A DNA stretch of 64,000 nt from Candidatus Dormiibacterota bacterium (GTDB lineage Bacteria > Chloroflexota > Dormibacteria > Aeolococcales > Aeolococcaceae), in the NCBI GenBank assembly GCA_963718525.1, contig OY970355.1, positions 1,608,025 through 1,672,024 on the forward strand, written 5' to 3'. This document shows positions 1-29,053 of this stretch, piece after piece. The position numbers were made by a program, and so were the translations under genes. The notes under the pieces were generated by a model. The model did not search any database, was not told the origin of the DNA, and was given only the letters and a program-made list of their open reading frames with translations. The number at the start of each line of letters is the position of its first letter. The first letter of the stretch is position 1.

Positions 1-585
1 GAACTCGTCCGAGTGCTGCATGTCGATGCACCGCTTGTACGCGAAAACATCCGGGTCGTCGACGTCGGTGCGCACCGTCGAGCTGTAGTCGACGTTGTCC
101 GCCCACACAGCCGGCGTGTCGATCATGTCGAGGAGGGCCTTTGCAGAGAAGTCGTAGACCTGCCGGTAACTCGGTTGCCTGAGTCGACGCAGGTTCGCAT
201 CCACGAGGTCGCTGATTTCGGTCAGCGAGCGATTGATGTCGAAGCAGTAGCGCTTGTCGGGAATGACCAGCGAAAGGATGCCGCCGGGTCGAAGAATCCG
301 AGCGACATCATCCATCCAGTCGATGGGATCGGGGATGTGTTCGATCACGTGGCACGCGATCACGTAATCAAACGGCGCGTCCGCAATGACGGCGTCGGCG
401 ATGGTCTGCTTGTCGCCGATGACGTAGTCCACGTCGACGATCTCATCGAGCCGTCCATGCATGCCCACATCCGTCGCGTACTTGCGCTTGAGCTCATCGG
501 CCGTGGCATGGTCGAGATAGCGAATTGGACCTTCGCTCTTGCGAACTCTCGGGGATGCCAGTGGACCGATCTCGAGCCCGCGCAT
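1..585 (-). CDS. class I SAM-dependent methyltransferase (3' end runs off the window start)
   Basis: Absent from the ORF track because it has no stop inside the window. My reverse translation reads MRGLEIGPLASP...APFDYVIACHVIEHIPDPIDWMDDVARILRPGGILSLVIPDKRY, which shows Rossmann methyltransferase motifs. The first ATG is at 583-585, but the frame stays open up to the clpP stop, so the start is uncertain. Confidence 0.75.
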   Translation of the reverse strand, partial: MRGLEIGPLASPRVRKSEGPIRYLDHATADELKRKYATDVGMHGRLDEIVDVDYVIGDKQTIADAVIADAPFDYVIACHVIEHIPDPIDWMDDVARILRPGGILSLVIPDKRYCFDINRSLTEISDLVDANLRRLRQPSYRQVYDFSAKALLDMIDTPAVWADNVDYSSTVRTDVDDPDVFAYKRCIDMQHSDEF

Positions 586-729
586 GCTCGAGACATCGAT
601 GCCGGCTAGCTCAGGGCGCAAGGATTGGGAAACCTCAGGGGACACCACCGGGAATTCGCGAAGCGTACCGCCTCGAGTCGCCCTGACGAATTCGGGCGCT
701 GCGAGCGGGGTCCGGCCGGCGGTTGGTGG

Positions 730-1386
730 CTACTGGTTGTGACCGCTGCCGACCGCGACGGATTCGCGCTCCGAGGCTTCCTTCGCGACGACCGACCCCG
801 CCGGACGCCGCTCGATGATCTGATCAATCATCCCGTACGCAAGCGCCTGCTCCGCCGTCATGTGGTAGTCGCGTTCGATGTCGCGGGCGATCTGCTCCGA
901 GTCCCGTCCGGTGTGCCGGTGGTAGAGCTCGACGAGCAACGCTCGCTGGCGGAGGATCTCGCGCGCGTGCACGTCGAGGTCGGTCGCCTGACCCTGCATG
1001 CCCTGCGCCCATGGTTGGTGGATGACCACCAGTGAGTTGGGCAGTGCGAGCCTGCGCCCCGGTGCGCCTGCGGAAAGCAGCAACGACGCGCCGCTTGCGG
1101 CCATCCCGAGGCACGTCGTCTCCACCTGCGGGCGCACGTACTGCATCGCGTCGTACATCGCGAGCGCTGCTGTCATGGAGCCGCCGGGGCTGTTGATGTA
1201 CAGGTGCACGTCGCGCTCGGGGTCCTCGCCCTCGAGGAAGAGGAGCTGCGCGGTGACCAGGTTGGCCAGATCGTCGTCGATGACCCCGCCGACGAAGATG
1301 ATCCGGTCGCGGAGCAGGCGCGAGTAGATGTCGTACGAGCGCTCACCGCGAGTTGTGCTCTCGACGACGGTGGGGACCAGGGTCAT
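730..1386 (-). CDS. clpP: ATP-dependent Clp protease proteolytic subunit
   Basis: 218 aa from ATG 1384-1386, with a GGAGGG SD upstream. Canonical core [17 protein letters not shown]. Triad contexts are [14 protein letters not shown] and IERDYHM. The 377-aa track ORF is an unsupported upstream extension. About 27 extra C-terminal residues are present. Confidence 0.95.
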
Positions 1387-2651: not shown

Positions 2652-3662
2652 ATGCTCAGACTGCCCCCATACGCCCGACTCGGTCTGGTCGCCCTGGTGG
2701 CCGCCGTCGCATTCGGCACGCTGGCGACAGCGTCGCATCTGCCCATCGCCACAGCCGGCGTCGCGGCGGCTGCTCGACCAGCTGCCCAGACACCCGCGGC
2801 CCCGTGGTTCGACATGCGCATCGCGAGCGCTGGGATCAACTTCTGGGCGCCTGCGAGCACGCCCGCGGGCACACCGCCGGTCAAGGGGCGCGCTGGAATC
2901 CTGGTCGACATGGACACGGGCGAGATCCTCTGGGAGAAGCAGCCGACCCTCGAGCTGGCACCCGCGAGCCTGACCAAAGTGCTGACCGCGCTCGTTGCTC
3001 TCGAGAACCTCAGTCCCGACCAGCGGGTGACCGTCACCGCCGCCGCGCTTGGTCAGTCGTCAGCGGACACGCTGATGCACATCAGGGCGGGGGAGACGCT
3101 GACTGTTGAAGAGCTGCTCGACGGCATGCTGCTTGCGAGCGGTGACGACGCCGCGAGCGCGATCGCGGTGGACACGGTCGGAATGTCGCGCTTCGTTGCC
3201 GCGATGAATGCGCAGGTCGCTGCGCTCGGCCTCGACCACTCGCACTTCACCGCCACCGCCGGGCTCGACGATCCGGGGCTCTACGCGTCCGCTTACGACC
3301 TTGCGGTCATCGCGGAGTACACCTACGAGCAGTTCCCCCTGTTCGACCAGATCGTCGGCAGCCGGACGATCAACTTGCCCGCCAGCATCGACCACCCGGC
3401 GTTTCACCTGCACAACCTCAACTCCCTGCTGCAGGCCTACCCGGCGTCGGTCGGCATCAAGCCCGGCTGGACCGGCGATGCCGGCGCCTGCCTCATCGGC
3501 ATGGCAGTCCGCAACGGCCACCACCTGCTTGCTGTGCTTCTGAGCGCCAACTACCCGGCGCGCATCGCAGGCCGGCTCTTCGACTGGGGGTTCCAGCTCG
3601 ACGGTCTGGCTCCCTTGCTGCCACCGACCCCGGCTCCGAAGGCAGTGATCAAAGCTACTTGA
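2652..3662 (+). CDS. D-alanyl-D-alanine carboxypeptidase (peptidase S11, PBP5/6 type)
   Basis: 336 aa with an N-terminal signal/TM segment. SxxK active-site motif in LAPASLTKVLTALVALE. Further S11-like blocks SGDDAA and KPGWTGDAG. Confidence 0.9.
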   Translation: MLRLPPYARLGLVALVAAVAFGTLATASHLPIATAGVAAAARPAAQTPAAPWFDMRIASAGINFWAPASTPAGTPPVKGRAGILVDMDTGEILWEKQPTLELAPASLTKVLTALVALENLSPDQRVTVTAAALGQSSADTLMHIRAGETLTVEELLDGMLLASGDDAASAIAVDTVGMSRFVAAMNAQVAALGLDHSHFTATAGLDDPGLYASAYDLAVIAEYTYEQFPLFDQIVGSRTINLPASIDHPAFHLHNLNSLLQAYPASVGIKPGWTGDAGACLIGMAVRNGHHLLAVLLSANYPARIAGRLFDWGFQLDGLAPLLPPTPAPKAVIKAT

Positions 3663-5796
3663 CGACGGCGAAGCCCGCGGCCATGGTGCCATCCCAAGGC
3701 GCCGAGGCGATCAGGCGCAGGTTGGGAAGGCGGGCGATGCAGCTCACGTTCCATGGAAACAGGGGCGAGGCGTCCCGCAGCGATCCGACGAATACCGCGT
3801 CTGCGCGGGTGACGGCTGCCTCCGCGGCTGCGGGATCGGTGCACGCATTCGCGAGCGCGGCCTCATAGGGGACGTCCAGCGCACCGAACGAATAGCCGTC
3901 GGGAACGAGGGGGGTGAGGTCGGTCAAGCCTGCCATCCACATGCCCGCATCATTGCCGCCATTGGTCAGGACGAGCGTCCCCTTGGGGAGTGTTTTGGAC
4001 ATGGATGACAGCACGCTCAGATCGGCCGGCGTCACCAGCGAACGTGTTGCCACCTCGTGCTTGTAAACGCCGACCTCGGTGGTCGCGCCAACCACGACCG
4101 CGACCAGCGCAATCATCCCCAGGACAGCGCCGGTGCCGTCAAGCTTCTGCGCCACGCCGCCGAACTTCGCTCGAATGGTGGCAGGAACGGTGACGCGACC
4201 CAACGCGCCCATCCACGCGACAACCAGCAGAATCGCGGTGACTCCCACCGCCGGAACCCACTGGCGAAAGTTGGCCATCTGATTGAACACTCCCAGCGGG
4301 TAGAGGACGACAGAGTTCGGCTCCCAGAAGTTGGTCCAGCCGGTTTCGAGCGGACGGCGGATGACGTAGACCAGCGCGGCGATCACCACTGCGCCGATCG
4401 AAACGCCGACCCAGATGCGGCGTGTCCGCGACAGCGACCGCACCACGTCGGCGAGTGCGAACAACCCAAATGCAAGCACCAGCGGTATGAGCCAGTACTG
4501 CACACCAAGAACCCGGTCCGTGTCACCCCAGGGATAGATCGCAACCCAGAGGCGATGCAGGTAGTGCAGGTAGAGGTCGTCGGCCATGATGAGAAAGAGC
4601 AGCACCTGTGCGACGAGCACCCAGAGCATCCTCCGACGGATGAGCATCGCGACAACCCCGACGCCATACAGCGCGAGAAACACAGGCCCGAGGAGGTCGG
4701 TTTGTGCGATGAGCACCAGGATGTGATGGGGCTTCAGCGGCGAATGGGCGGTCGCAACGACGTACTGCGCCGGCTGGGTGTGCGTAGCGGGTGGGAGCTT
4801 GGGAATCCGCGTCAGGACGGTCACGACCACGGCCCCCGCAAGCGCGGCGCCGAGTGCGATCGCGAGCCGGATGAAACCCGTCCGTTGCGAACCTCGAACC
4901 GCGTGGACCACAGCTATCGCAAGCAACCCGCATGCGACCACCAGAGCGGTGACCACCTCCAGCCCATGGATCACCCAGATTGACGTCGTGATCGCTCCAA
5001 GCAGGAGCGCGTTCTCCGTGGTACTTCGCCCGCGTATGACGCGCAGTGCCGCGACGATGAACGGAACGATGAGAGTCGAGTCGACGATCTCGGGAAAGCG
5101 TCCGATGATCGCCTGACCCGAGGGGAAGATCAGTCCGAGCGCGAAGAACGGAACGATCGCTGCGAGCGCCACCAACTCGGTGGCCTCCAGCGTGAGCAGG
5201 GTGAGCGACAGTGGGAGGACGACGAGGGTCGCGGTGACGATCGGCGCCATGGCACCGGCGGGCGACGGCGACCCGAGCCACGAGACAACCGCCGCCGTCG
5301 CCTCGAAGCCGGGCCGCGCTCGCACGTAATCGGACCCTTCGAGTGGGATCGGAAACAGCGGCAGCACATCATGCGTTCGCACGATGCTGTTGACGACAGC
5401 CGCGTGGGTCGGGGTATCCCAGTCGGGCGGCAGGACCTGTCCGTGCAACGCCCAGGCGAAGGTCGCGGCACCAATCACACCGACGGCGAGCGCTGGGATG
5501 GGGAGCCACCACGGGTGGGCCGGCGCGGCCTGTGGTTCGGTGCGCCGCCAGCGCCACAGAGCGGCGATGCCGAGCACCAGCAACGCCGGCAGGACGCTGA
5601 TGGCCTCGAAGGGGATGTGCACGTCGTGCAACACCAATCCGTACACGCCGATGACGCCCGCGGACAGTCCCGGGGCCATGAGCAGTCGCTGCCATGCCCG
5701 CCATGTCGGAGCAAGCAGCGTGACGAGCGCGAAGCCGGGGAGGAAAGCAACGGCCACCACCCCTGGCAGGGTTTGCGCGAAGTCCTGGAACGGCAA
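3655..5796 (-). CDS. large polytopic membrane protein, possible GT-C-fold glycosyltransferase, polymerase or oligosaccharyltransferase (family unassigned)
   Basis: 713 aa with a TTG start. By eye it has more than 12 hydrophobic helices and a soluble C-terminal domain of about 130 aa. It starts 12 nt after the stop of the initiating sugar transferase, so the two are probably co-transcribed. Confidence 0.75.
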   Translation of the reverse strand: MPFQDFAQTLPGVVAVAFLPGFALVTLLAPTWRAWQRLLMAPGLSAGVIGVYGLVLHDVHIPFEAISVLPALLVLGIAALWRWRRTEPQAAPAHPWWLPIPALAVGVIGAATFAWALHGQVLPPDWDTPTHAAVVNSIVRTHDVLPLFPIPLEGSDYVRARPGFEATAAVVSWLGSPSPAGAMAPIVTATLVVLPLSLTLLTLEATELVALAAIVPFFALGLIFPSGQAIIGRFPEIVDSTLIVPFIVAALRVIRGRSTTENALLLGAITTSIWVIHGLEVVTALVVACGLLAIAVVHAVRGSQRTGFIRLAIALGAALAGAVVVTVLTRIPKLPPATHTQPAQYVVATAHSPLKPHHILVLIAQTDLLGPVFLALYGVGVVAMLIRRRMLWVLVAQVLLFLIMADDLYLHYLHRLWVAIYPWGDTDRVLGVQYWLIPLVLAFGLFALADVVRSLSRTRRIWVGVSIGAVVIAALVYVIRRPLETGWTNFWEPNSVVLYPLGVFNQMANFRQWVPAVGVTAILLVVAWMGALGRVTVPATIRAKFGGVAQKLDGTGAVLGMIALVAVVVGATTEVGVYKHEVATRSLVTPADLSVLSSMSKTLPKGTLVLTNGGNDAGMWMAGLTDLTPLVPDGYSFGALDVPYEAALANACTDPAAAEAAVTRADAVFVGSLRDASPLFPWNVSCIARLPNLRLIASAPWDGTMAAGFAVVK

Positions 5797-5808
5797 GCTT
5801 GATCGAGC

Positions 5809-7185
5809 TCAGCGGCCCTTGAGCGTGGCCACTGCAAAGACCGTGCGCGCCATGATGAGAAGGTCGAGAGCAACCGACTGTCGCTTGATGTAGTAAAGGT
5901 CGTACGAGAGCTTGATCGTGGATCCGCCAACATCGCCGGCATAGCCGTAGTTCACCTGCGCCCACCCTGTCAGGCCGGGACGCACCGACAGCCTCGTGTT
6001 GTAGTACGGGATGCTCTCGCGCAGCGTCTCGACGTACTGAGGTTGCTCGGGACGGGGACCCACCACGCTCATGTCGCCACGAAGGATGTTCCACGCCTGT
6101 GGCATCTCATCGAGATGCAGGCGGCGGAGCACCCCGCCGACCTTGGTGATGCGCGCATCATCTGCGGCGGTCCAGTGCAACTCCTCGCGAGTAGGAACGC
6201 GCATCGTTCGCAGTTTGACGATCTCGAAATGCCTGCCGAAATGGCCGACCCGGACCTGGCGGTGAAAGACCGGCCCGCGGTCCTCCATCGTGATCGCCAG
6301 CCAGACAAACGGCAGCAGGATCCCGAGCAGCACCAATCCGATCAGACCGGCGACGATGTCCACGACCCGCTTGAAAAGTGCGTACACGCGTGAGGTTTCC
6401 CCGCGCTGCTGCAACGAGAGCAGCCATGTCTGGCGGAGTCGCTCGACGAGGAGCCGACCCGTCAACTCCTCATACACGTCCGCGACCGATCGCACCACCA
6501 TTCCCCGGTCGTAGCACTCGACGAGCCCCTTGAAGAGGTCCGTGGGGAGGTCCTCCTCGGCTCCGAGCACGATCTGATCCGCTGCGCGTCGCGCCGCCGC
6601 CGTGGCCAGCAGCGTGCCTGCGTCCGGGTCGGCCGGATGGATGGTCCCGACCACGCGGTACAGCCCGGCCATCTGCGCGTCGACATCCGCCCAGACACGA
6701 TCGAGGATGTCTGCGTCGGCGACAAGGAGGATGCGCCCGGCAAAGATTGCTCGAGCGAACACGCGCCGGTAGAAGAGCCGCCAGCAGAGGATCGTGAGGG
6801 CGGCGACCGGAACCCAGATCAGGATCGTCGGGCGGGTCACCCCATAGGGCACTGCGAAGAACACCGCGAGCAGAGCAATCGTCTCGAGCGTCACGGTGGT
6901 TGCGACGACCCGGAAGATGCCGCGTACGCTGACGGCCGCGTGCAGATCGTAGGCATCGACCATCAGGGCGGCTGCGAGCCAGATCCCCGTGACGGTCCCG
7001 ACCCCGGCCCAGGGAATGGTCAGGGCGGCGTGCTGGATCGGCCCCGAGTGGAGGTTGAAGGCGAGAATCAGCGACGCCGCGACCAAAATGGAGTCGCCCG
7101 CTGCAAGGAGCAACTTCCGTTCAGAAGCGAGGATTCCCCGCCGGCCGGCCGCAACTGTGGCGCCCGGAACGTCCTGGGCGATCAT
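5809..7185 (-). CDS. undecaprenyl-phosphate sugar phosphotransferase (WbaP/CpsE-type initiating enzyme)
   Basis: 458 aa from ATG 7183-7185. N-terminal TM helices. C-terminal bacterial sugar transferase block GPVFHRQVRVGHFGRHFEIVKLRTM...DEMPQAWNILRGDMSVVGPRPE. The track ORF 5809-8388 is an artefactual extension that overlaps the opposite-strand GT2. Confidence 0.9.
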   Translation of the reverse strand: MIAQDVPGATVAAGRRGILASERKLLLAAGDSILVAASLILAFNLHSGPIQHAALTIPWAGVGTVTGIWLAAALMVDAYDLHAAVSVRGIFRVVATTVTLETIALLAVFFAVPYGVTRPTILIWVPVAALTILCWRLFYRRVFARAIFAGRILLVADADILDRVWADVDAQMAGLYRVVGTIHPADPDAGTLLATAAARRAADQIVLGAEEDLPTDLFKGLVECYDRGMVVRSVADVYEELTGRLLVERLRQTWLLSLQQRGETSRVYALFKRVVDIVAGLIGLVLLGILLPFVWLAITMEDRGPVFHRQVRVGHFGRHFEIVKLRTMRVPTREELHWTAADDARITKVGGVLRRLHLDEMPQAWNILRGDMSVVGPRPEQPQYVETLRESIPYYNTRLSVRPGLTGWAQVNYGYAGDVGGSTIKLSYDLYYIKRQSVALDLLIMARTVFAVATLKGR

Positions 7186-7254
7186 CGAAGCTAGCCTACA
7201 CGCTGAAGCTCCGCTCAACACCGGCGGACGAGACGGTACCGTGCCGGAGACACG

Positions 7255-8316
7255 ATGACTCCCACGAGTGCGCCGCCCGTGCCCGACGCCCCCTTCGTGA
7301 GCGTGGTCCTCCCGGTTCTCAACGAGGAGCGCTTCATCGAGGCGTGTCTGACCTCGGTGCTCACCCAGGACTATCCGCCCGATCGGTACGAGGTGATCGT
7401 CGCGGATGGTGGTTCGACTGATCGAACTCGAGAGATCGTTGCCGCCATCGCTGCACGAGACGCTCGGGTGCGCCTCATCGACAATCCGGGCCGGATGCAA
7501 GCCGCGGGGTTGAACCGAGCCATCGCAGCGAGCAGCGGCGACATCATCGCGCGTCAGGACGGTCACGCCGAATGGGCCTCTGATCACCTGCGCCGATCGG
7601 TGGCACTGCTGCTCGCGACCGGCGCCGACAACGTGGGCGGGCGCCAGGAAGCGATCGGCGACGGGGCGTCCGAACGTGCAATCGCACACGCGATGGGCTC
7701 GCCATTCGGCGTCGGCGGCGCTCGCTTCCGGTACTCGGAGGAGGAGGAGGAGATGCCGACCGTCTTCCTCGGCACGTTCCGCCGCAGTGCCTTCGAGCGA
7801 GTCGGTCTCTTTGACGAGGCGTACCCGCCGCACGAGGATTACGAGCTCAACGAACGCATCCGGTCGACGGGTGGTCGGATCATCTTCAGCCCGGAGATCC
7901 GAACTCGGTACCACGTACGCAGCGGGCTCACGGCCCTGGGCCGCCAGTACTACCGGTACGGGCGCGGCAAGGTGCGGGTGGCTCGCGCAAGCCCGGGCGT
8001 CATCCGTCCGTATCACCTGGCGGCACCGGCGCTGGTCCTGGCGATCCCGGTCATGGCCGCAATGGCGGTGACCGGTCAGGGTCGCCGTCTCGCCATCACG
8101 GGGGTCGGGGTCTACGCCACCGCCTGTGTGATCGCCGGCCAGCTGGCGGCTCGAACCGAGCCCCTCGGAGTACGCGCACGCACGTCCGCTGCCTTCGCGG
8201 TGATGCACGTCGGATGGGGATCGGGGTTCTGGGCGGGCGTCCTGGAGGGTGCCGCCGGCATTGCAACCGGTGGAGGCGCGCCGCCGAGCCTCGGCAGTCG
8301 CTCGGAAACGGCATAG
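7255..8316 (+). CDS. glycosyltransferase family 2 (membrane-anchored)
   Basis: 353 aa with a GGAGA SD. GT2 N-terminal pattern VSVVLPVLNEERFIEACLTSVLTQDYP...EVIVADGGSTD. Hydrophobic C-terminal third. Confidence 0.9.
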   Translation: MTPTSAPPVPDAPFVSVVLPVLNEERFIEACLTSVLTQDYPPDRYEVIVADGGSTDRTREIVAAIAARDARVRLIDNPGRMQAAGLNRAIAASSGDIIARQDGHAEWASDHLRRSVALLLATGADNVGGRQEAIGDGASERAIAHAMGSPFGVGGARFRYSEEEEEMPTVFLGTFRRSAFERVGLFDEAYPPHEDYELNERIRSTGGRIIFSPEIRTRYHVRSGLTALGRQYYRYGRGKVRVARASPGVIRPYHLAAPALVLAIPVMAAMAVTGQGRRLAITGVGVYATACVIAGQLAARTEPLGVRARTSAAFAVMHVGWGSGFWAGVLEGAAGIATGGGAPPSLGSRSETA

Positions 8317-8348
8317 GCCGGCGCCGCGACCCCGTATTGTTGGAGGCG

Positions 8349-20111: not shown

Positions 20112-20122
20112 CGGCACCGGTT

Positions 20123-20955: not shown

Positions 20956-22472
20956 GCAACGGCGGGGACGTTAGCGCCTCGGCGCAGCAGCACGAGGGCG
21001 AGGAGTGCCCAAACAACCGCTGTGCCGGCGCATCGCAACAGGAGCGCGGCGACGTCGAGGTGGCCCGGACGCAAACCGCTCACCCCCATGTCGAGCACCA
21101 CGGTGACCGCGACGGCGACCAGCAGCACCAGCGTCATCTTCAGATACAGCGCACCGCGCTCGCGGACATGCCGATCCCAGATGTGCGGGGCGGCGGTCTC
21201 GAAGATGACCACTGCCACGAGGAACTGCACCCACACGTCATTCATCGCGACTGCCTGCGCGCCCCAACCGGTCCGCAGGGCGATCACGTTCGCGACAATG
21301 TTGACGACAAGTGCGCCGGTCCAGATGGACAGGTGCCGCTTCTGGCGATTCACCCGTTTCGAGTTGAGCACGAGCGAAGGGACGGTGGCGATGGGAAGGA
21401 GCAGGATGGTCAGCGCAAGGATGTCGAACAGGCGGATGGAGGGCGCGAAGCTCGGCGTGAACGCCATGACCAGCGGGGCAAATCCTGCCTGGCCAAGCCC
21501 GGCGATGGTCGCGGCGATGAGCGCCATCGCGATGGTGATTCGCTCGGCATGCCGAGCCCAGAGCGGTCCGCTCGCTCCGCGGCCGAGCTCGCGCCAGATG
21601 GTCGGCAGCAGGACCGCCTGGATACCGCCGATCGCGTTTGTGGCCACCGCGATGGGCGCGGCCGCGAACGTGTACAGGCCCAGCACGAACGACGACGACG
21701 CGATGGCGACCGACGAGCTGCCCACGAGGCGGTAGGCCCAGTAGACCTCCGCGAGCAGGCCGAGCGGGAATCCGACGCGCAGGAACGGGCGCGCAGCCCG
21801 CGTATCGAACGATGGTCGCAGTTGCAGGGGTGGGCGGAACACGAAGTAGATCGCGGCCGTCAGCAGGGATGCGAGCGCGGGCGCGACGAACATGCCGGGA
21901 GTTCCGATGGCTGCGACCAGCGCCACCAGCAGCACCGGCCCGAGGATCGCCTGCACCACGGCCACCTTGCCGACAACGTCGAATCGCGACCGGGCCGACC
22001 ACAGCGTGGAGAGGAAGCTGCTGCCGCTCGATGCGATCACCGCGACCGGCGCGAGGAAGAGCCCGAGCCGAAGCACCCCGGACGAAACGAAGAGCCCGAC
22101 AACCGCGAGTGCGATGCCGGGCAGCGCCGACACCACCAGCTCGAAGGAGAACCCGACGTTCTGGGCATGACGGGCCTCGCGCACCTCGCCGTGCGCGAGG
22201 TGGTCGATGACGGCGCGGATCGATCCCTCGAAGACCCCGCTGCGTATCAGCGTCGCATAGAGATAGATGAGCAGCACGAACTGGCCGTCGCCGTATCGAG
22301 ACGGTCCGAGCCAGTGCGCGGCAAGGAATCCCGCGCCGACGGCGAGCACCGAGCCGATCAGCGATGCTCCCGACAATCCCGAAGCGGAGCGCAGGATCCT
22401 CCGCAGACCGAGGCTCTCGAGCGGATCCGGCACGCCGGCCTCCACCGGGAGCTCGTCCGTGGTGGTCACCAT
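20952..22472 (-). CDS. polysaccharide flippase (Wzx/MOP family) with extra C-terminal helices
   Basis: 506 aa from ATG 22470-22472. A multi-helix protein with the usual Wzx-like layout. It overlaps the upstream GT2 stop by 7 nt. Confidence 0.85.
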   Translation of the reverse strand: MVTTTDELPVEAGVPDPLESLGLRRILRSASGLSGASLIGSVLAVGAGFLAAHWLGPSRYGDGQFVLLIYLYATLIRSGVFEGSIRAVIDHLAHGEVREARHAQNVGFSFELVVSALPGIALAVVGLFVSSGVLRLGLFLAPVAVIASSGSSFLSTLWSARSRFDVVGKVAVVQAILGPVLLVALVAAIGTPGMFVAPALASLLTAAIYFVFRPPLQLRPSFDTRAARPFLRVGFPLGLLAEVYWAYRLVGSSSVAIASSSFVLGLYTFAAAPIAVATNAIGGIQAVLLPTIWRELGRGASGPLWARHAERITIAMALIAATIAGLGQAGFAPLVMAFTPSFAPSIRLFDILALTILLLPIATVPSLVLNSKRVNRQKRHLSIWTGALVVNIVANVIALRTGWGAQAVAMNDVWVQFLVAVVIFETAAPHIWDRHVRERGALYLKMTLVLLVAVAVTVVLDMGVSGLRPGHLDVAALLLRCAGTAVVWALLALVLLRRGANVPAVA

Positions 22473-23479
22473 CGCCGCCGGCGCGTGGCATCGCCGATTC
22501 TCGCCGCCAGAGAGGGCGAGGCCAGGATGAGCGCTGCCTCGAGAACGAAGCGAGGCGATCCCGGCAGGCAAGCGAGCGCGGCGCCGCGCGCCTTCCACGG
22601 CCGGTTCGCCCGTGCATGCGCATAAGCCGCCGCCAGTGCCCTGCGGCGCCTCATCCAGCTGAGAGTCGCCGCCGCGACCTCCCGCTGCTGATCGTCACCG
22701 GCTTCCAGTACCGCGCGTTCGAGGACGCGCGAATACGTGTCGTAGATATCGGTGCGATGGCTGAGCCCTGTCGACTCCACCCGGTAGAGCAGGGTCGGCG
22801 CCGCGACCCCGTGCACTCTCAGGCCGGCCCGGATCATCCGTATCCACAGATCCCAGTCCTCCGCGCCCGAGACGCCGTCGCGAAAGCCGCCGGCGTCCTC
22901 ATATGCCGCGCGCGGAAAGAGCGCGCCGATCGAGACGAAGTTGTGCCGCAGGATGTCGAGCATCTGATGGTCAGGCGCCGGAATGGGAAAATGATCGTGC
23001 TGCGTCGCGCGACGCACGCCTTCGCCCGGATGCCATCTGAGCGCATCCGCGCACACTATTCCACCGAAGCGCGCCTGGAGTGCAGCCAGTGACGCGAGGT
23101 GATCGGGGAGCCAGACATCGTCGGCGTCGAGCAGTGCGATCAACGGCGTCTCGATGCGTGCGATCGCGGCGCGTCGCGCCGCAGCGGGGCCGGAGTTCCG
23201 CTCGAGGCGGACGACCTCGACCGGGAGCAGTCCCTGCCAGCGTCGGGCGAGCGCCGGCGTGTCGTCGTCGGAGTGATCGTCGCCGACCACAACGGCCGTG
23301 GGGGATAGCGTCTGAGCCGCGACTGATGCCAGCGCAGCGCCCAGCGTCCGCGTCGAGTTGTATGCGGGGATCACCACGGCGATGGGGCTGACGGGGCTCT
23401 GGGAGGCGATGCCGCCGGCGCGAGGCTGCCGTTGCGGCTCCGTCGTCACGGCCCCAGGGTACCCGTAGGAATCCGCCAT
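22466..23479 (-). CDS. glycosyltransferase family 2
   Basis: 337 aa. IAVVIPAYNSTRTLGAALASVAAQT...VVVGDDHSDDDT...LLDADDVWLPDHL. Confidence 0.9.
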   Translation of the reverse strand: MADSYGYPGAVTTEPQRQPRAGGIASQSPVSPIAVVIPAYNSTRTLGAALASVAAQTLSPTAVVVGDDHSDDDTPALARRWQGLLPVEVVRLERNSGPAAARRAAIARIETPLIALLDADDVWLPDHLASLAALQARFGGIVCADALRWHPGEGVRRATQHDHFPIPAPDHQMLDILRHNFVSIGALFPRAAYEDAGGFRDGVSGAEDWDLWIRMIRAGLRVHGVAAPTLLYRVESTGLSHRTDIYDTYSRVLERAVLEAGDDQQREVAAATLSWMRRRRALAAAYAHARANRPWKARGAALACLPGSPRFVLEAALILASPSLAARIGDATRRRRW

Positions 23480-24593
23480 GGGTTGCAGCCGGCGATCTCT
23501 ATCATCTCCGGTCGTGAGCGCCCATAGCTATGGAAGCCAGGAGTTCCGGATCGGCGACCGGCCGGTCGGACCGGGCCATCCGACCTATGTCATCGCCGAA
23601 GCGGGCTCGAACCACAACCGAGACCTCGACACGGCCTTCGGGCTCATCGACGCCGCGGCGAATGCCGGCGCCGATGCTGTCAAATTCCAGACCTACACCG
23701 CCGAGGGCCTGTACTCGCGCCGCACACCGGACATGTCCTACCTCAAGGACCAGGGGCTCGTGGGTGAGCGCGAATCGGTCTGGGACCTGATCAAGCGGGT
23801 CGAGATTCCCTGGGAATGGCATGGTGATCTGGCCGCCCACGCCAGGAAGGCCGGGGTCGCGTTCCTCTCGACGCCGTTCCAGGAGGAGGCCGTCGACCTC
23901 CTGGACCAGATCGGCGTTCCCGCTTTCAAGATCGCCTCGTACGAGGTCAACCATCTTCCGCTCATCGAGCGTGCGGCTCGCACCGGAAAACCTCTGCTCA
24001 TCTCCACCGGGATGGCATCGCTCGGCGACATCGAACGCGCCCTCGACACCGCGACCGCCGCCGGGGCGCGCGACCTGATGGTGCTGCACTGCGCGGTGAA
24101 CTACCCGCCGCGCTTCGAGGATCTCAACCTCCGCGCCATCCCCACGCTCCGGGCAGCCTTCCAGATACCGATCGGATGGTCCGATCACACTCGCGGGCAC
24201 ACGGCAGACGTCGTCGCGGTCGCCCTCGGCGCATGCGCGATCGAGAAGCACTTCACCCTGAGCAGGAACCAGGAGGGACCGGACCATCCTTTCGCGCTCG
24301 AGCCGGACGAGCTCACGGCCATGGTGCAGGCCATCCGCGAAACCGAGGCATCGCTCGGGTCAAGCGTGAAGCGTGTGACCAAGGCGGAGGCCGAGATGTT
24401 CCGGCTCGGACGTCGCAGCATCGTCGTGAGCCGAGACGTTGCCGCGGGCGCCGCACTGACGCGAGCGGATCTTGCGATCAAGCGTCCCGGTTTCGGCATC
24501 CCGGTCCACGACATCGATCAGGTGGTCGGCAGGCACGTCACCCGCTCCATGGAGGAGGACGAGGTGCTCCAGTGGGACGATCTCGTCCGGTAG
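23478..24593 (+). CDS. pseI: pseudaminic acid synthase (NeuB family)
   Basis: FRIGDRPVGPGHPTYVIAEAGSNHNRDLDTAFGLIDAAANAGADAVKFQTY, with a C-terminal SAF domain. The start may instead be GTG 23514, because ATG 23478 overlaps the divergent start codon within CATG. Confidence 0.88.
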   Translation: MGCSRRSLSSPVVSAHSYGSQEFRIGDRPVGPGHPTYVIAEAGSNHNRDLDTAFGLIDAAANAGADAVKFQTYTAEGLYSRRTPDMSYLKDQGLVGERESVWDLIKRVEIPWEWHGDLAAHARKAGVAFLSTPFQEEAVDLLDQIGVPAFKIASYEVNHLPLIERAARTGKPLLISTGMASLGDIERALDTATAAGARDLMVLHCAVNYPPRFEDLNLRAIPTLRAAFQIPIGWSDHTRGHTADVVAVALGACAIEKHFTLSRNQEGPDHPFALEPDELTAMVQAIRETEASLGSSVKRVTKAEAEMFRLGRRSIVVSRDVAAGAALTRADLAIKRPGFGIPVHDIDQVVGRHVTRSMEEDEVLQWDDLVR

Positions 24594-24616
24594 CGACCGG
24601 TCGTGATCGCCCCCGC

Positions 24617-25069
24617 GTGACGCTGCGCGCGGCTCGCGGGGACGATGCCAGCCTGGTCAGGGCCTGGCGCAACGACGCCGACGCGGTCCGCTTCAGTGTG
24701 AGCGCCCGCCCCGTGTCGGAGGGCGAGCACGCTCGCTGGTTCGCAACAGCGCTTGCCGATCCTCGGATACAACTCTGGGTCGCGGAGGAGAACGGGGTCC
24801 CGGTGGGTCAGGTGCGAGCCGATCTCGTCGGCGATTCGGCGGTCTTCTCGATCGCCGTTGCGGCTTCCGCGCGAGGCCGTGGGGTAGGTCAGCGGATGCT
24901 CCGGCTCGCCCTGGAGGAGATCGAGCGGCAGCACGCTGTCACCACCATGACGGCCGTGACGCACCCCGACAACCTGGCCTCGATACACGCCTTTGAGCGG
25001 GTGGGGTTCCGCCGCCGTGAGGCGTCCGAGGGGGGCTTTGTCGTCCTCGAACTGACGTTGGACTCGTAG
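24617..25069 (+). CDS. pseH: GNAT N-acetyltransferase (PseH-like)
   Basis: About 150 aa from GTG 24617. VTLRAARGDDASLVRAWRND...ARGRGVGQRMLRLALEE (acetyl-CoA motif A). The start is uncertain. The 297-aa track ORF overlaps pseI out of frame. Confidence 0.72.
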   Translation: MTLRAARGDDASLVRAWRNDADAVRFSVSARPVSEGEHARWFATALADPRIQLWVAEENGVPVGQVRADLVGDSAVFSIAVAASARGRGVGQRMLRLALEEIERQHAVTTMTAVTHPDNLASIHAFERVGFRRREASEGGFVVLELTLDS

Positions 25070-25087
25070 CGCGAGCGTCGAGCGCGC

Positions 25088-25873
25088 TCACGTGGCCGCG
25101 GCAGGGTCCTCGCCACGGCGCGCAGCGTCTCGCTGGGCGCGATACCGCTCATCTCTCGCGGGCAGTCCACTCTGATCCCACAGCGTTGGATCAAACTCGA
25201 AATACGCGACCACAGCCGCAAGATGGGGCGGTGGTGCGGCCGGAAGCGCCATGAGGATCGTCCGGATCCGCTCGAGGTCTTCCGGCACATCCACGGTCAG
25301 GCGCATGGACGAAAGATCTCGGTCGTTGACCATGTTGACGGTGCGGTACTCGCCGGAATGCTCGCGCAGCCGTGCGGTCACGTGTTCACGGTGGTAGTCG
25401 AGGACCGACTCGACGTCGAGCCGCCGCAGACATTCCGCGGTGAGCACCTCGACGTCGTAACCCTGCGGGTAGGTCGGTGGAAGCTCGTTGCTGGCGTAGT
25501 CGGCGTCGGCCGAAGTGCGCATGCGCACCAGACCGTCGACGAGCTCCGGGTCGACGAGGGGGCAGTCCGACGTGACCCGGATCACCACGTCCGCGCCGTG
25601 CTCTTCCGCGGCAAGCACGTACCGGCTCAAGACGTCGGCGACCGCACCTCGGGTGACCCTGGCTCCCAGTGCACCCGCGAGGTCCGCGACAACGTCATCC
25701 CCGGGTTCGACGGTGGTCGCAACCACGACGTCGTCGATCGTCTCCGCCATCGAGACGCGCTCGATGACGTGCGCGAGCATCGGCTTGCCGCAGAGGTCGG
25801 CGAGGACCTTGCCCGGGAACCGGGTCGATCCCACGCGAGCCTGGATCACCGCAACATTTCGGAGCGCGGACAT
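25088..25873 (-). CDS. pseF: pseudaminic acid cytidylyltransferase (SpsF/NeuA-like)
   Basis: 261 aa from ATG 25871-25873. VAVIQARVGSTRFPGKVLADLCGKPMLAHVIERV...RVTSDCPLVDPELVD. TGATG junction with pseG. Confidence 0.82.
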   Translation of the reverse strand: MSALRNVAVIQARVGSTRFPGKVLADLCGKPMLAHVIERVSMAETIDDVVVATTVEPGDDVVADLAGALGARVTRGAVADVLSRYVLAAEEHGADVVIRVTSDCPLVDPELVDGLVRMRTSADADYASNELPPTYPQGYDVEVLTAECLRRLDVESVLDYHREHVTARLREHSGEYRTVNMVNDRDLSSMRLTVDVPEDLERIRTILMALPAAPPPHLAAVVAYFEFDPTLWDQSGLPARDERYRAQRDAARRGEDPAAAT

Positions 25874-26856
25874 CAGGCGGCGTCGACGCGCGCGAGGCGC
25901 CGCACCGCCTCTGCGACCCGCCACGCGCCGCGACCGTCCACCAGCGCGCGTCCCCGTTCCGCCATCACATCGCAGCGTGCCGGGTCGTCGAGGAGCTTGA
26001 TGCACTCAGCGGCGAGATCCTCCGAATCGACCACGACTGCACAACCGGCTCGGCCAAGAGCGGCCGCTTGAGCGGATTGGTTTGGCACGGCGTCGTTGAT
26101 CACCGCGGGGATGCCGACACACGCGGCCTGCACGGCGGTGGTGCCGGCCGCACCGACATAGATGGTCGTTTCAGCGAGCGCCTCGGCCAGGCTTGGCGGC
26201 GCGACCAGCAGGTGCAGACGCGGCTGGTCGACCGGGGAGGCGCCCTGCGCGTCCGGTCCGACAACTCTGAGGACCTCGAGGGACGCGTCCTCGTTGAGCA
26301 GCCGGGTGCTGACGTTCGCTGCCATGCCGTCGATGTCGGTCGCTCCAGTCGATACCAACACGGTCCTTCGAGCTCGCCCGCGGCGCAGCACCGTCTCGCG
26401 GGCCTCCGCGAACGCTGAGCGAATCAGCGCATAAGCGGCGCCACCCAGGAAGGCGGTCGCGCCCGCGGGACGCAGGCTCTCACCGCCGGGCGATGGGTTG
26501 ATGCCGAGGTCGCAGTCGGCGGTGTGGCCAAGATCGTCAACCACAGTCAGGGGGACGCGCCGGCGCAGCCGCTCCTGCATACCGGCATCGAAGACGTACC
26601 CGTCGAGTACGAGGAGATCCGGTGCTCGACCCGCAGCGAGCACGGAGGCGACCCGATCCGGCGCTGCGCCGCGAGCCGCCACCACAGCATGGCCTCGATC
26701 CTCGACACGTCTGCGCAGCTCGACGTCGTCGTCTGGAAGCACCACGGATACCGAGGTGTCCGGTCGCAGTGCATCAGCGAGGGCGAGCATCCGCTCGAGG
26801 TGGCCAAGTCCGACGCCGGATCCGCAATCCGGAGCCAGCAGGGCTCGCAGGATCAT
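25873..26856 (-). CDS. pseG: UDP-2,4-diacetamido-2,4,6-trideoxy-beta-L-altropyranose hydrolase (PseG, GT28-like)
   Basis: 327 aa from ATG 26854-26856. DCGSGVGLGHLERMLALADAL... and C-terminal GAAGTTAVQAACVGIPAV. ATGA overlap with pseC. Confidence 0.78.
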   Translation of the reverse strand: MILRALLAPDCGSGVGLGHLERMLALADALRPDTSVSVVLPDDDVELRRRVEDRGHAVVAARGAAPDRVASVLAAGRAPDLLVLDGYVFDAGMQERLRRRVPLTVVDDLGHTADCDLGINPSPGGESLRPAGATAFLGGAAYALIRSAFAEARETVLRRGRARRTVLVSTGATDIDGMAANVSTRLLNEDASLEVLRVVGPDAQGASPVDQPRLHLLVAPPSLAEALAETTIYVGAAGTTAVQAACVGIPAVINDAVPNQSAQAAALGRAGCAVVVDSEDLAAECIKLLDDPARCDVMAERGRALVDGRGAWRVAEAVRRLARVDAA

Positions 26857-28055
26857 GGAACGATCTGATGCGTCGACGCCCATGCCTGGATCCGGCGCAG
26901 TGCAACCACGACGTCGTCCTGGTCGGATGCCGTCATCGTTGGGAAGAGCGGCAGCGTCACCAACCGTTCGCACATCGCCTCGGCTCGAGGCGCCGTGCCG
27001 GGGACGCCGCCGCGTGCCCGATAGAGCGACAGCAGGTGCACCGCCGGGTAATGCAGCGTTGCCTCGATACCCTCCGCCCGCAGCGCGTCGATGATCCAGT
27101 CGCGCTCACAACCGAACACCTCCGGGTCGATCTCGACTGGATAGATGTGCCATGCGCTTCTGCGACCCTCTGGACGCGGTGGGAGGCCGATGCCCGGAAT
27201 CTCGCTGAGCATCGCGTCGTACCGATCGGCCATCTCGCTGCGTTCAGCGACGACGTCGTCGAGGCGATGCAGCTGCGAGATGCCGAGCGCGGCTTGCAGC
27301 GTGGTCATACGGTGGTTGTCGCCGAGCATGATGACGTCGTATTTCCAGAGCGTGCCGGTCCGCTCGTCCGCGGTGCTGGTCATCCCATGGTTGCGCAGCT
27401 TGCGAATGCGGTCCGCCACTGCGCCGTCCGAAGTCAGGCAAGCGCCACCCTCTCCGGTGGTGATCTGTTTCACCGGATGAAAGCTCAGCGTGGTGATGTC
27501 CGCAAGCGATCCCACGGGCCGTCCGTTGTGGCTTGCTCCGAGCGAGTGGGCGCTGTCGGCGACCACCGGGAGCGGCCGCGGCAGCGCCGCCTTCAGCGCA
27601 CCGATATCCGACGGAAGTCCCGAATAGTCGACGGTGATCACAGCCTTGGTCCGCGGAGTCACGTTGCGCGCCACCGATTCAGGATCGAGGCATCGATCCT
27701 CACCGACATCGGCGAACACCGGAGTCCCACCGGCACGGAGCACAGCGTTGGCTGTCGCGACGAACGTCAGCGGCGTCGTGATCACCTCGTCCCCTGGTCC
27801 GATGCCGAGTGTGAGCACCGCGAGGTCGAGCGCCGCGCTGCCGTTGGTGAGCGCGATCGCGTGGTCGGCTCTGCCCCGTGCCGCGAGCGCGTGCTCGAAG
27901 TCGGCGATGGCCGCACCACCGGTGAGCGTGCCCGAGCGAAGTGCCGCGACCACGGCGTTGACGTCGGCGTCGTCGAGCGCGTGACGGCCGTAGGGGAGGG
28001 GGTGAAGCCGGATCGGCGTGCCCCCGGCGATCGCCGGGGGACTCGTGATGCTCAC
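26853..28055 (-). CDS. pseC: UDP-4-amino-4,6-dideoxy-N-acetyl-beta-L-altrosamine transaminase (DegT/DnrJ/EryC1 family)
   Basis: About 400 aa from GTG 28053-28055 (GTGA overlap with the pseB stop). LTNGSAALDLAVLTLGIGPGDEVITTPLTFVATANA... and PLP-lysine context SFHPVKQITTGEGG. Confidence 0.88.
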   Translation of the reverse strand: MSITSPPAIAGGTPIRLHPLPYGRHALDDADVNAVVAALRSGTLTGGAAIADFEHALAARGRADHAIALTNGSAALDLAVLTLGIGPGDEVITTPLTFVATANAVLRAGGTPVFADVGEDRCLDPESVARNVTPRTKAVITVDYSGLPSDIGALKAALPRPLPVVADSAHSLGASHNGRPVGSLADITTLSFHPVKQITTGEGGACLTSDGAVADRIRKLRNHGMTSTADERTGTLWKYDVIMLGDNHRMTTLQAALGISQLHRLDDVVAERSEMADRYDAMLSEIPGIGLPPRPEGRRSAWHIYPVEIDPEVFGCERDWIIDALRAEGIEATLHYPAVHLLSLYRARGGVPGTAPRAEAMCERLVTLPLFPTMTASDQDDVVVALRRIQAWASTHQIVP

Positions 28056-29053
28056 CCCGCGTCGGCCGGCGCCTCGGCCGGCCATTTGGCCAGGAGATCG
28101 CGAAGTTCGCCGACGTCGAGCCACTCCGTGTTGCTGTCGCTGCTGTAGTGGAACTCCTCGGCGACCCGCGCCCCTTCAGTGGTTGCGCGAGCGCCCCAGA
28201 AAGGATGTTCGGGAACGACGACGTAACACCAGCCCATGTCGAATGTATGCCTCGCCTCGTCCGATGTGATCAGGACCTCGTGCAACTTTTCGCCCGGCCT
28301 GATGCCGGTGTAGCGGATCGACACTCCGGGCGCGATCGCTTCCGCAAGGTCAACGACGCGCGTGCTGGGGATTTTGGGGATGAAAACCTCGCCACCCGCC
28401 ATCGTTGCGACGCAGTCGGCGACAAGTTGCACCGCCTGATCAAGCGTGATCCAGAAGCGGGTCATGCGCTCGTCGGTCACCGTCAGTTCGCCGGTGTCCG
28501 CCTGGCTGCGAAAGAGCGGCACCACGCTGCCGCGGGAACCGACCACGTTGCCGTAGCGAACGCACGAGAGGCGTACGTCATTCGGACCGGCGTACACGTT
28601 GGCCTGGACGAACAGCTTTTCAGCACAGAGTTTGGTGGCGCCGTACAGGCTCGCAGGACTCACCGCCTTGTCGGTGCTGAGCGCCACAGCGCGCGAGATA
28701 CCTGCCTCGATGCACACCTCGGCAACGTTCTGAGTCCCGAGGATGTTGGTCTGCACCGCCTCAAACGGGTTGTATTCGCAGGCGGGCACCTGCTTCATGG
28801 CGGCGGCGTGGATGACGATGTCCACGCCGTCGACGGCTCGCCGCAGCCTTTGGTGATCGCGTACGTCGCCGATCAGGAAGCGGAGCCGGTCGTCGCCGAA
28901 TGATCGCTGCATCTCCGACTGCTTGAGCTCGTCGCGGCTGAAGATGCGGATCGTCTTGGGATTCCATCGGGACAGCGCGGTGCGCGTGAAGTGATGGCCA
29001 AAGGAGCCGGTGCCCCCGGTCAGCAGGATTGTGCGCCCCTCGAAATAGTTCAA
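28052..29053 (-). CDS. pseB: UDP-N-acetylglucosamine 4,6-dehydratase (inverting)
   Basis: 333 aa, TTG start with a GAGGA SD 7 nt upstream. ILLTGGTGSFG...IFSRDELKQSEM...GDVRD...VIHAAAMKQVPACEYNPFEAVQTNILGTQNV...STDKAVSPASLYGATKLCAEK. Confidence 0.92.
   Translation of the reverse strand: MNYFEGRTILLTGGTGSFGHHFTRTALSRWNPKTIRIFSRDELKQSEMQRSFGDDRLRFLIGDVRDHQRLRRAVDGVDIVIHAAAMKQVPACEYNPFEAVQTNILGTQNVAEVCIEAGISRAVALSTDKAVSPASLYGATKLCAEKLFVQANVYAGPNDVRLSCVRYGNVVGSRGSVVPLFRSQADTGELTVTDERMTRFWITLDQAVQLVADCVATMAGGEVFIPKIPSTRVVDLAEAIAPGVSIRYTGIRPGEKLHEVLITSDEARHTFDMGWCYVVVPEHPFWGARATTEGARVAEEFHYSSDSNTEWLDVGELRDLLAKWPAEAPADAG

Follow-up and report, generated by a model that had tools for sequence, protein, structure and literature searches.

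A putative envelope-heteroglycan locus with a nonulosonic acid module kept across Candidatus Dormibacterota

We analyzed a 64,000-nucleotide stretch of contig OY970355.1 from a Candidatus Dormibacterota bacterium (the whole stretch is called the window below) and found that positions 3655 to 29053 probably (roughly 60%) form a cell-envelope heteroglycan locus that is kept across this lineage, depends on a Wzx-type flippase, and carries a nonulosonic acid (NulO) module, a reading drawn from sequence and fold comparisons. The product is most likely an acidic, methylated heteroglycan with glucuronic acid (GlcA) and/or xylose (Xyl) and a 5,7-diacetamido NulO, predicted to be finished outside the cell by a GT-C-fold glycosyltransferase (GT). 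In support of an earlier reading of the letters alone (the original prediction), an initiating phosphoglycosyl transferase (PGT), a Wzx flippase, and six GT-type proteins stand in one locus with several methyltransferases, a branch for UDP-GlcA and UDP-Xyl, and all the steps of a 5,7-diamino-NulO pathway. The locus adds a further case to a kind already known, the Wzx-dependent surface-glycan locus with a NulO module. What goes beyond the ordinary are three leads, namely, a PGT-coupled GT-C protein without polymerase or ligase, a candidate NulO transferase of the LIC12162 family, and a family of membrane proteins of about 750 aa.

Candidatus Dormibacterota are abundant in cold, nutrient-poor soils, and we know of nothing established about their cell surface, since no member has been cultured. 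The locus gives a testable prediction of a major envelope glycan of these bacteria, which would be acidic and methylated and would bear a NulO of the pseudaminic acid (Pse) type. Such a glycan could guide cell sorting with lectins or antibodies, metabolic labeling with azido-Pse, and phage-receptor studies.

Extent, conservation, and variable center of the locus

The window has a GC content of 66.5%, which fills plain lists of open reading frames (ORFs) with false ones. Genes were chosen by codon-position (third-position) GC, and public contigs that share 99.96% identity with the window (metagenome-assembled genome [MAG] GCA_049584575.1 and others) supplied the gene calls from which the starts were corrected. 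Enzyme families were assigned by Pfam and NCBIfam hidden Markov models (HMMs), PDB sequence searches, and Foldseek fold searches on AlphaFold2 (AF2) models. The locus holds 23 genes, a gene remnant counted as one, within about 25 kb, and they are transcribed in many short units of alternating orientation. The left arm consists of the following genes.

3655-5796, minus strand: polytopic membrane protein of family DUF6541, 713 aa, about 16 transmembrane segments and a C-terminal domain (Pfam DUF6541, E 4e-25)
5809-7185, minus strand: initiating polyprenyl-phosphate hexose-1-phosphate transferase of the WbaP/WcaJ type (the PGT), 458 aa (Bac_transf, E 2.8e-58; TIGR03025, 327 bits, cut-off 296)
7279-8316, plus strand: GT2 glycosyltransferase, 345 aa, two C-terminal hydrophobic segments (Glycos_transf_2, E 8.6e-31; best NCBIfam model MftF/EpsD-like)
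8349-9746, plus strand: UDP-glucose 6-dehydrogenase Ugd, 465 aa (three UDPG_MGDP_dh domains; TIGR03026, 421 bits, cut-off 190; TuaD-like, 405 bits)
9743-10696, plus strand: UDP-glucuronate decarboxylase, i.e., UDP-xylose synthase Uxs, 317 aa (human UXS1, 2b69 and 4gll, E 7e-101 over the full length)
10700-11362, minus strand: class I S-adenosylmethionine (SAM) methyltransferase, 220 aa (Methyltransf_11, E 2.5e-10; 71-87% identity in 8 related loci)
11353-12660, minus strand: GT4 glycosyltransferase, 435 aa (Glycos_transf_1, E 7e-41)
12683-13489, minus strand: class I SAM methyltransferase, 268 aa (Methyltransf_11/25, E ~1e-12)
13566-15347, plus strand: soluble GT-B-fold protein of the "LIC12162" family (PF27859), 593 aa (AF2 and Foldseek)
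15337-15867, minus strand: small SAM methyltransferase, 176 aa (Methyltransf_11, 28 bits, cut-off 21; 74-94% identity in 10 relatives)
15904-17283, plus strand: GT4 glycosyltransferase, 459 aa when intact (Glycos_transf_1, E 7e-43)

One genome per GTDB species was scanned with the 593-aa protein, which yielded 12 related loci with flanks of about 10 kb. All 12 come from MAGs of Candidatus Dormibacterota/Dormibacteraeota, one of them labeled Saccharimonadales, and close homologues of the DUF6541 protein also carry Dormibacteria names. The left-arm order DUF6541, PGT, GT2, Ugd, Uxs, methyltransferase, GT4, (methyltransferase), 593-aa protein, methyltransferase, GT4 recurs in about 10 of the 12, and a large membrane protein, the Wzx flippase, a GT2, and the NulO synthase follow farther right wherever the 10-kb flank extends there. 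More than 20 consecutive glycan genes in an order shared with other genomes are far beyond chance. Outside the variable cassette described below, the proteins are 59-92% identical across about 10 species-level MAGs of one phylum. The PGT and Ugd both stand at 80-92%, and the DUF6541 protein, found in 9 of the 10 loci whose left flank extends to its position, is 59-81% identical in these 9. This is a lineage-wide envelope locus with a diversifying center, a pattern typical of surface-glycan loci.

The original prediction had described an island reaching from the window start to 29053, amid genes like those of a high-GC monoderm. The genes that it listed (PGT, Wzx, two GT4, three GT2, ugd-uxs, the NulO genes, and five methyltransferases) were recovered where it had placed them or close by, and the right end stands. 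The conserved locus starts only at 3655, with an S11 carboxypeptidase, a MOSC protein, an XRE regulator, and ClpP on its left flank, the four genes already set apart in the prediction as exceptions (the carboxypeptidase as dacB). These four separate it from the first methyltransferase, which lies outside.

1-621, minus strand: SAM methyltransferase, 3' part of a 324-aa protein cut by the window start (Methyltransf_23, E 1.2e-10)

The word island does not fit. The locus has a GC content of 0.666, compared to 0.664 for the part of the window downstream, the annotated genes showed no integrase, transposase, tRNA, or repeat boundary, and gene order is conserved across about 10 species-level MAGs. 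These findings contradict the idea that the whole locus is a strain-specific genomic island gained by horizontal transfer, which we regard as very unlikely. The idea holds only for the central cassette, where close strains do differ by a deletion, a methyltransferase insertion, and the presence or absence of an ArnC-like GT2. As for the host, Dormibacterota have no cultured members and are predicted to be monoderm (bioRxiv 10.1101/2021.08.23.457424), and they are placed either as a sister lineage of Chloroflexota or as a class inside it (PMC10608941). The likeness to a monoderm of high GC (66%) is borne out to that extent, in a lineage that is not actinobacterium-like.

Two of the related loci deserve separate mention (L numbers are our own handles for loci). 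The one labeled Candidatus Saccharimonadales (L012, DATLRB010000040.1) is syntenic with the Dormibacterota loci, its proteins are 72-91% identical to theirs, and it is probably misbinned. The most divergent Dormibacterota locus (L018, DAINSI010000019.1) is compact and rearranged, in the order NulO synthase, methyltransferase, 593-aa homologue, methyltransferase, two short-chain dehydrogenases/reductases (SDRs), GT4, GT2, Wzx, GT2, and PGT; it has no Ugd/Uxs pair or DUF6541 gene within the stretch examined.

The variable cassette lies between the second GT4 and Wzx. In the window it comprises four genes.

17280-18113, plus strand: class I SAM methyltransferase, 277 aa (Methyltransf_23, E 7e-24)
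18130-19110, minus strand: GalE-like SDR nucleotide-sugar 4-epimerase, 326 aa (Epimerase, E 1.6e-35; best PDB matches the UDP-glucose 4-epimerases 4zrm and 2p5u)
19143-20111, minus strand: ArnC/GtrB-type polyprenyl-phosphate glycosyltransferase (GT2), 322 aa, two C-terminal transmembrane segments (PDB and NCBIfam)
20123-20955, minus strand: remnant of a polytopic membrane protein of about 750 aa, ORFs of 221 and 57 aa (alignment to intact relatives)

Between the cassette and the NulO module stand two more genes.

20952-22472, minus strand: Wzx-like flippase, 506 aa (Polysacc_synt_3, 24 bits, cut-off 23; at least 9 hydrophobic segments)
22466-23449, minus strand: soluble GT2 glycosyltransferase, 327 aa (Glycos_transf_2, E 5e-26; TuaG/EpsD-like), overlapping the Wzx start

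Other loci carry SDR, aldo-keto reductase, methyltransferase, or metallo-β-lactamase-fold genes in the cassette. Orthologues of the 277-aa methyltransferase (81-94% identity) occur in 4 of the 12 related loci (L011, L012, L014, and L015), and those of the ArnC-like GT2 (90-98% identity) in only 3 (L011, L014, and L015). The latter enzyme matches ArnC 9bhc with an E value of 1e-49 over residues 7-308 and GtrB 5ekp with 7.5e-38. It scores 190 bits over the full length of the ArnC model NF007986 and 153 bits with PgfS; since 190 bits is below the ArnC equivalog cut-off of 529, its sugar probably differs.

The 221-aa ORF at the right end of the cassette was rejected as an orphan membrane protein, being the remnant of a deletion. 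In the intact L014 protein, the two remnant ORFs correspond to residues 6-83 and 532-755, and compared with L011 the window lacks about 1.3 kb and 147 bp. The deletion is real, as it is present in independent short-read MAGs and a 98% identical strain (L002/L026) has a 1.47-kb insertion at the same place, consisting of a methyltransferase and a metallo-β-lactamase-fold fragment. A different deletion was found in L023, and the protein is intact in L011, L013-L016, L019, L020, and L024. The family is decaying in this strain.

Some of the gene calls required correction. An 859-aa ORF at 5809-8388 proved to be an artefact spanning the PGT gene and the GT2 gene on the opposite strand. The second GT4 gene is split in the window by one extra T at 16230 in comparison with L004, a 99.96% identical MAG. 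Two short-read MAGs and one Logan contig have it intact; it is split in long ENA contigs alone, and these contain further broken or fused genes. The extra T is most likely a long-read assembly indel error and not biology, and a pseudogene or phase switch was dropped as an explanation because the gene is intact in short-read assemblies. L004 and the window differ by eight substitutions in 7425-21365, and at every one L004 has G or C where the window has A or T.

The NulO module and the identity of its sugar

The NulO module at the right end of the locus (23514-29053) covers the six steps of a 5,7-diamino-NulO pathway.

23514-24593, plus strand: NeuB-family NulO synthase, 359 aa (NeuB, E 1.8e-92, and SAF)
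24617-25069, plus strand: PseH-like GNAT N-acetyltransferase, 150 aa (best NCBIfam model TIGR03585 PseH, 50.6 bits, cut-off 93)
25088-25873, minus strand: CTP_transf_3 cytidylyltransferase, probable CMP-NulO synthetase of the SpsF/6oew type, 261 aa (CTP_transf_3, E 3.8e-32; PDB 6oew, E 1e-35)
25873-26856, minus strand: PseG-like UDP-sugar hydrolase, 327 aa (TIGR03590, E 4e-32, model positions 5-279 of 280, 112 bits, cut-off 154)
26853-28055, minus strand: PseC-like DegT-family aminotransferase, 400 aa (DegT_DnrJ_EryC1, E 4e-106; TIGR03588 PseC, 368 bits, cut-off 424)
28052-29053, minus strand: inverting UDP-GlcNAc 4,6-dehydratase PseB, 333 aa (TIGR03589, 477 bits, cut-off 408)

We consider Pse the probable NulO with some confidence because the PseB is canonical. 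Its score with H. pylori PseB (2gn4) is 357 bits, compared to about 235 bits for the CapE/FnlA types, 132 for PglF, and 56 for LegB, and the STDK...YGATK signature with the catalytic Tyr and Lys is conserved. The models for PseC, PseG, and PseH are the best ones for their respective genes. For the aminotransferase, the ArnB model reaches 275 bits and LegC 193, and in the PDB search ArnB gave 232 bits and H. pylori PseC 177. The PseH-like protein has acetyltransferase Pfam matches on the identical MAG gene, and the PseG-like protein gave no sequence match in the PDB. The KdsB entries were weaker than 6oew in the PDB search with the cytidylyltransferase, and the CMP-activation step is probably covered by this enzyme, non-orthologous to PseF.

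Other findings in the module speak against Pse. Only PseB and PseI exceed curated cut-offs, and the models for PseC, PseG, and PseH, best as they are, stay below theirs. The synthase passes the PseI model narrowly (TIGR03586, 344 bits, cut-off 340) and scores higher with the NeuB model (TIGR03569, 374 bits, below its cut-off of 400); its nearest solved relative is B. subtilis SpsE (1vli, 247 bits), ahead of PseI (8h2c, 201 bits) and NeuB (180 bits). The cytidylyltransferase is not PseF-like (TIGR03584 PseF, 38 bits, cut-off 206). The original prediction of a full Pse pathway is thereby sustained for PseB, which is unambiguous, and for the six filled steps, less so for PseC, PseG, and PseH, and not for the gene named PseF. 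It had itself named a grouping of the pse-like genes with the legionaminic acid (Leg) or Neu pathways as evidence against it, and this applies in part, since the synthase leans in that direction, unlike PseB.

The synthase and the cytidylyltransferase would also fit Leg or another 5,7-diamino isomer. The sps pathway of B. subtilis (SpsM, C, D, G, E, and F) has the same six enzyme types in a UDP-linked route and leads to Leg (PMC7439481); SpsE is the best match of the synthase in the PDB, and CTP_transf_3 is also the Pfam family found in sps-type loci. The step that sets the configuration differs, however. In SpsM, one residue of the catalytic triad is Met, and the enzyme acts as a dehydratase of the retaining type. 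Leg production was restored when PglF replaced it, but not, or only in part, with C. jejuni pseB (PMC7439481). The dehydratase in the window is a canonical, Tyr-type PseB, the top-scoring models for the next enzymes are PseC and PseG, with LegC far behind, and the Pfam scan found no Epimerase_2 protein, i.e., no NeuC/LegG-type hydrolyzing 2-epimerase, in the locus. A Leg-type product is accordingly possible, though clearly the less likely of the two.

Candidate enzymes for NulO transfer and completion of the glycan

The 593-aa protein is our best candidate for the NulO transferase, on the basis of gene neighborhood only. No transmembrane segment is predicted in it, and its AF2 model (predicted local distance difference test [pLDDT] 88.7, predicted template modeling score [pTM] 0.90) has a GT-B fold, with BshA (E 1e-8), MurG, GT4 enzymes, and UDP-GlcNAc 2-epimerases among the Foldseek matches at 9-14% identity. 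Pfam and NCBIfam scans of this protein and of the ~750-aa family returned nothing beyond a weak match to DUF6716, "putative glycosyltransferase," on one homologue; some relatives of the 593-aa protein bear the precomputed Pfam label PF27859. A word-indexed search found 78 relatives, all annotated "hypothetical," and when 1.84 billion representatives were searched with a profile, 912 clusters reached E ≤ 1e-3 and 218 reached E ≤ 1e-30, most of them with 600-640 aa. The orphans of the original prediction have resolved into this soluble GT-B-fold protein, the GT-C-fold DUF6541 protein, and the gene remnant.

Distant homologues (25-42% identity) adjoin a NeuB-family gene in all five loci examined (L030, L032, L033, L034, and L035). 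In four of these, the homologue is divergent beside a flippase of about 500 aa, which is followed by a PseB-like dehydratase, a DegT aminotransferase, and the synthase, and three of the four also have a cytidylyltransferase. Two of the five homologues are followed by a methyltransferase and a GT4, as in the window; L032 and L033 have a methyltransferase at the position that the 15337-15867 gene occupies here. The neighbors themselves are related, too. The second GT4 has 41-49% identical homologues beside the LIC12162 proteins in L032, L033, and L035, and the Wzx-like protein is 41-49% identical to the flippases beside the NulO modules in L030, L032, L033, and L035. One distant contig has 34% GC, indicating that the association of the GT-B family with NulO genes spans phyla. 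Since the six NulO steps are already filled in both the window and L035, the 593-aa protein is an additional GT-fold protein rather than a missing pathway step. Few NulO transferases are known to us, and a GT-B family that accompanies NulO modules in several phyla offers enzymology and glycoengineering a practical starting point.

The single PGT and the single Wzx, together with the same order of both arms in Dormibacterota MAGs, point to one pathway and not several. One might instead suppose two unrelated products made side by side, a methylated GlcA/Xyl glycan (3655-20111) and a separate NulO modification (20952-29053), in keeping with the many short, alternately oriented transcription units and with the variable cassette between the arms. 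We consider this improbable, as the arms share one PGT and one flippase and are linked in most loci that extend far enough. Furthermore, the candidate NulO transferase and its partner GT4 reside in the left arm and, in other phyla, beside NulO genes and Wzx, and the NulO synthase gene of L018 adjoins left-arm genes.

The DUF6541 gene lies directly downstream of the PGT gene on the same strand, with a gap of 12 bp. The top 20 Foldseek matches of its AF2 model (pLDDT 68, pTM 0.74) in the PDB are all GT-C enzymes, with probabilities of 0.96-1.00 and TM-scores of 0.3-0.43, which give the fold class and not the reaction; they include ArnT (5ezm, E 9.5e-5), AftA, STT3, PglB, and DPY19. The protein is, as modeled, a GT-C-fold glycosyltransferase and the only intact one in the locus of this strain. 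D58 is conserved in at least 90% of the sequences, and E64 and D127 are invariant, in loops that are predicted and with a topology that is inferred. There is no STT3 or Wzy_C Pfam match and no WWDXG among the conserved columns.

The ~750-aa family, represented in the window by the remnant, is not related to DUF6541 (hhalign probability 0.5%). It has about 15-18 hydrophobic segments plus a C-terminal domain and at least 181 homologues, and none of the 181 has a Pfam or NCBIfam family assignment. Its gene neighbors that of the SDR epimerase, as well as the ArnC-like GT2 gene in loci that have one, and the protein could be a second polyprenyl-sugar-dependent transferase or a polymerase. A second paralogue of about 800 aa was found between the PGT and the first GT2 in L013 (1379-3790) and L019 (4126-6537).

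We infer the order of the steps, the sugar handled by each GT, O-methylation by the four methyltransferases, the role of DUF6541, and the acceptor as follows. The WbaP/WcaJ-type PGT would start the chain on polyprenyl phosphate at the inner face of the membrane. Soluble GT4, GT2, and GT-B enzymes would extend it with UDP-GlcA and/or UDP-Xyl, supplied by Ugd and Uxs, and with a CMP-5,7-diacetamido NulO. The latter, most probably Pse, would be made from UDP-GlcNAc by PseB, PseC, PseH, PseG, the NeuB-family synthase, and the cytidylyltransferase and may be added by the 593-aa protein. The four SAM methyltransferases of the locus would O-methylate sugars, and the Wzx-type flippase would move the lipid-linked unit outward. 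The last membrane step, on the outer face, may be carried out by DUF6541. It would either hand the completed unit on to the acceptor, which may be peptidoglycan, protein, or lipid, or add a side sugar; the donor would then be a polyprenyl-phosphate sugar from the ArnC/GtrB-type GT2, a type of enzyme that supplies GT-C transferases at the outer membrane face. The variable cassette would diversify the glycan structure between strains.

General protein glycosylation is a possible, though less probable, alternative, in which the lipid-linked oligosaccharide would be moved en bloc to S-layer or envelope proteins by DUF6541 as an oligosaccharyltransferase, with no polymer being made. The locus contains no Wzy, Wzz, or LCP, a conserved GT-C gene directly follows the PGT, PglB and STT3 are among its fold matches, and Tannerella forsythia, whose locus is the nearest by composition, makes a protein O-glycan. 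On the other hand, the matches of DUF6541 to PglB and STT3 are at best equal to those with ArnT and AftA, the conserved columns show no WWDXG-type motif, the second large polytopic protein of the relatives could be a polymerase, and no acceptor protein is known.

An envelope heteroglycan, which we prefer, has points against it as well, apart from those raised by the NulO module. No polymerase, chain-length regulator, or LCP ligase lies within the locus; in agreement with the original prediction, Pfam and NCBIfam scans gave no Wzy_C, Wzz, or GNVR match on any protein of 1-29053, and the locus has no ABC exporter, flagellin, or Maf protein. The DUF6541 model is moderately confident. The Wzx call combines a marginal Pfam score with homology to better-scoring flippases, two of which (41-46% identity) carry Polysacc_synt matches. 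The transferase role of the 593-aa protein is drawn from its neighbors, as noted above. It is conceivable, though doubtful, that Dormibacterota complete their principal envelope glycan with none of Wzy, WaaL, and LCP, using DUF6541, possibly with the ~750-aa family, as a ligase or oligosaccharyltransferase of a new type that acts on a methylated, NulO-capped lipid-linked glycan, and that LIC12162/PF27859 is an unrecognized family of NulO transferases.

Relation to known systems and neighboring genes

No characterized homologous locus was found, and a literature search returned no paper naming both Dormibacter* and pseudaminic acid. The kind of glycan, which the original prediction did not recognize as a described type, has a precedent in the S-layer O-glycan of T. 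forsythia, in which Pse, Xyl, and GlcA occur together with two O-methyl sugars (Tomek et al. 2018, PMC6120980). The 27-kb cluster of this organism comprises wzx, pseBCFHGI, five Gtfs, and three methyltransferases (PMC6120980). It resembles the locus in size, inventory, and nucleotide-sugar enzymes, and no oligosaccharyltransferase or polymerase has been identified there either. The two are analogous and not shown to be homologous, however, and T. forsythia is a diderm of the Bacteroidota. Its cluster has no PGT, GT-C, Ugd/Uxs, or ArnC-type GT2, unlike the window, and the xylose-containing core is encoded elsewhere in its genome. Its Pse bears acetamidino and glyceroyl groups, for which the window has no genes.

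Two characterized routes to a 5,7-diamino NulO share features with the module. The Helicobacter/Campylobacter CMP-Pse pathway has the same six reaction types in one module and a clearly orthologous PseB, but the synthase and cytidylyltransferase of the window are of the SpsE and SpsF/6oew types, not PseI and PseF. Neither flagellin nor Maf genes accompany the module, and a lipid-linked glycan is the probable destination of the sugar. The B. subtilis sps system (Dubois et al. 2020, PMC7439481) is likewise from a monoderm, uses a UDP-linked route with the same enzyme families, and has the nearest synthase in SpsE. It differs in the Met-type, retaining SpsM as opposed to the Tyr-type PseB of the window, its product decorates the spore crust, and the system has no PGT, Wzx, or GT-C.

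In its general layout, the locus resembles the Wzx/Wzy loci for O-antigen and capsule, with a WbaP/WcaJ PGT, cytoplasmic GTs, Wzx, in-locus nucleotide-sugar genes, and a variable center. It lacks a recognizable Wzy, Wzz/PCP, tyrosine kinase, WaaL, or LCP and has instead the conserved GT-C protein and, in relatives, the ~750-aa membrane protein. The Arn/Gtr systems (ArnC/GtrB plus ArnT/GtrC) are similar in having Ugd, a UDP-GlcA decarboxylase, an ArnC/GtrB-type GT, and a GT-C protein, the one in the window matching ArnT best. An Arn-like aminoarabinose pathway was nevertheless rejected as the principal explanation, because the decarboxylase is a true UXS and not ArnA (the next family follows at E 4e-37, more than 200 bits below human UXS1), and the aminotransferase belongs to the NulO operon; moreover, no formyltransferase or deformylase is present, and the ArnC-like orthologue occurs in 3 of the 12 related loci compared to 9 of 10 for DUF6541. 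The other GT2 with two C-terminal hydrophobic segments (7279-8316) was considered as a GtrB-type enzyme, which the HMM and PDB searches did not support, and it is not ArnC-like.

Actinomycete teichulosonic acids are also NulO-containing, sometimes methylated, cell-wall glycopolymers of high-GC monoderms, but they belong to another phylum and are known chemically, their gene clusters being largely undefined. Pse-containing wall polymers of Kribbella and Actinoplanes have reportedly been described by Shashkov, Tul'skaya, and colleagues. A Kdn teichulosonic acid of Streptomyces (S. coelicolor) is among the work cited in PMC7831098.

On the right, the locus is flanked by an F420-dependent LLM-class oxidoreductase (29133-30107; TIGR03560, 308 bits, cut-off 231), which is divergent from PseB and is followed by a small MazE/AbrB-like gene, a second small gene with no family match, and a response regulator. 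Farther along are the housekeeping genes ccsB, HIT, OsmC, an opp-type ABC operon, comEA/comEC, holA, glucose-6-phosphate dehydrogenase, glucokinase, and leu and ilv genes. The opp-type peptide ABC operon (33849-39713; SBP_bac_5, two permeases, and two ATPases) has a GC content of 0.61-0.63 compared to about 0.66-0.69 elsewhere in the window. Positions 52323-55709, far from the glycan locus, encode an ABC-2-type exporter (an ATPase and a 539-aa permease) followed by another SAM methyltransferase, next to a pair of a GAF histidine kinase and a LuxR response regulator.

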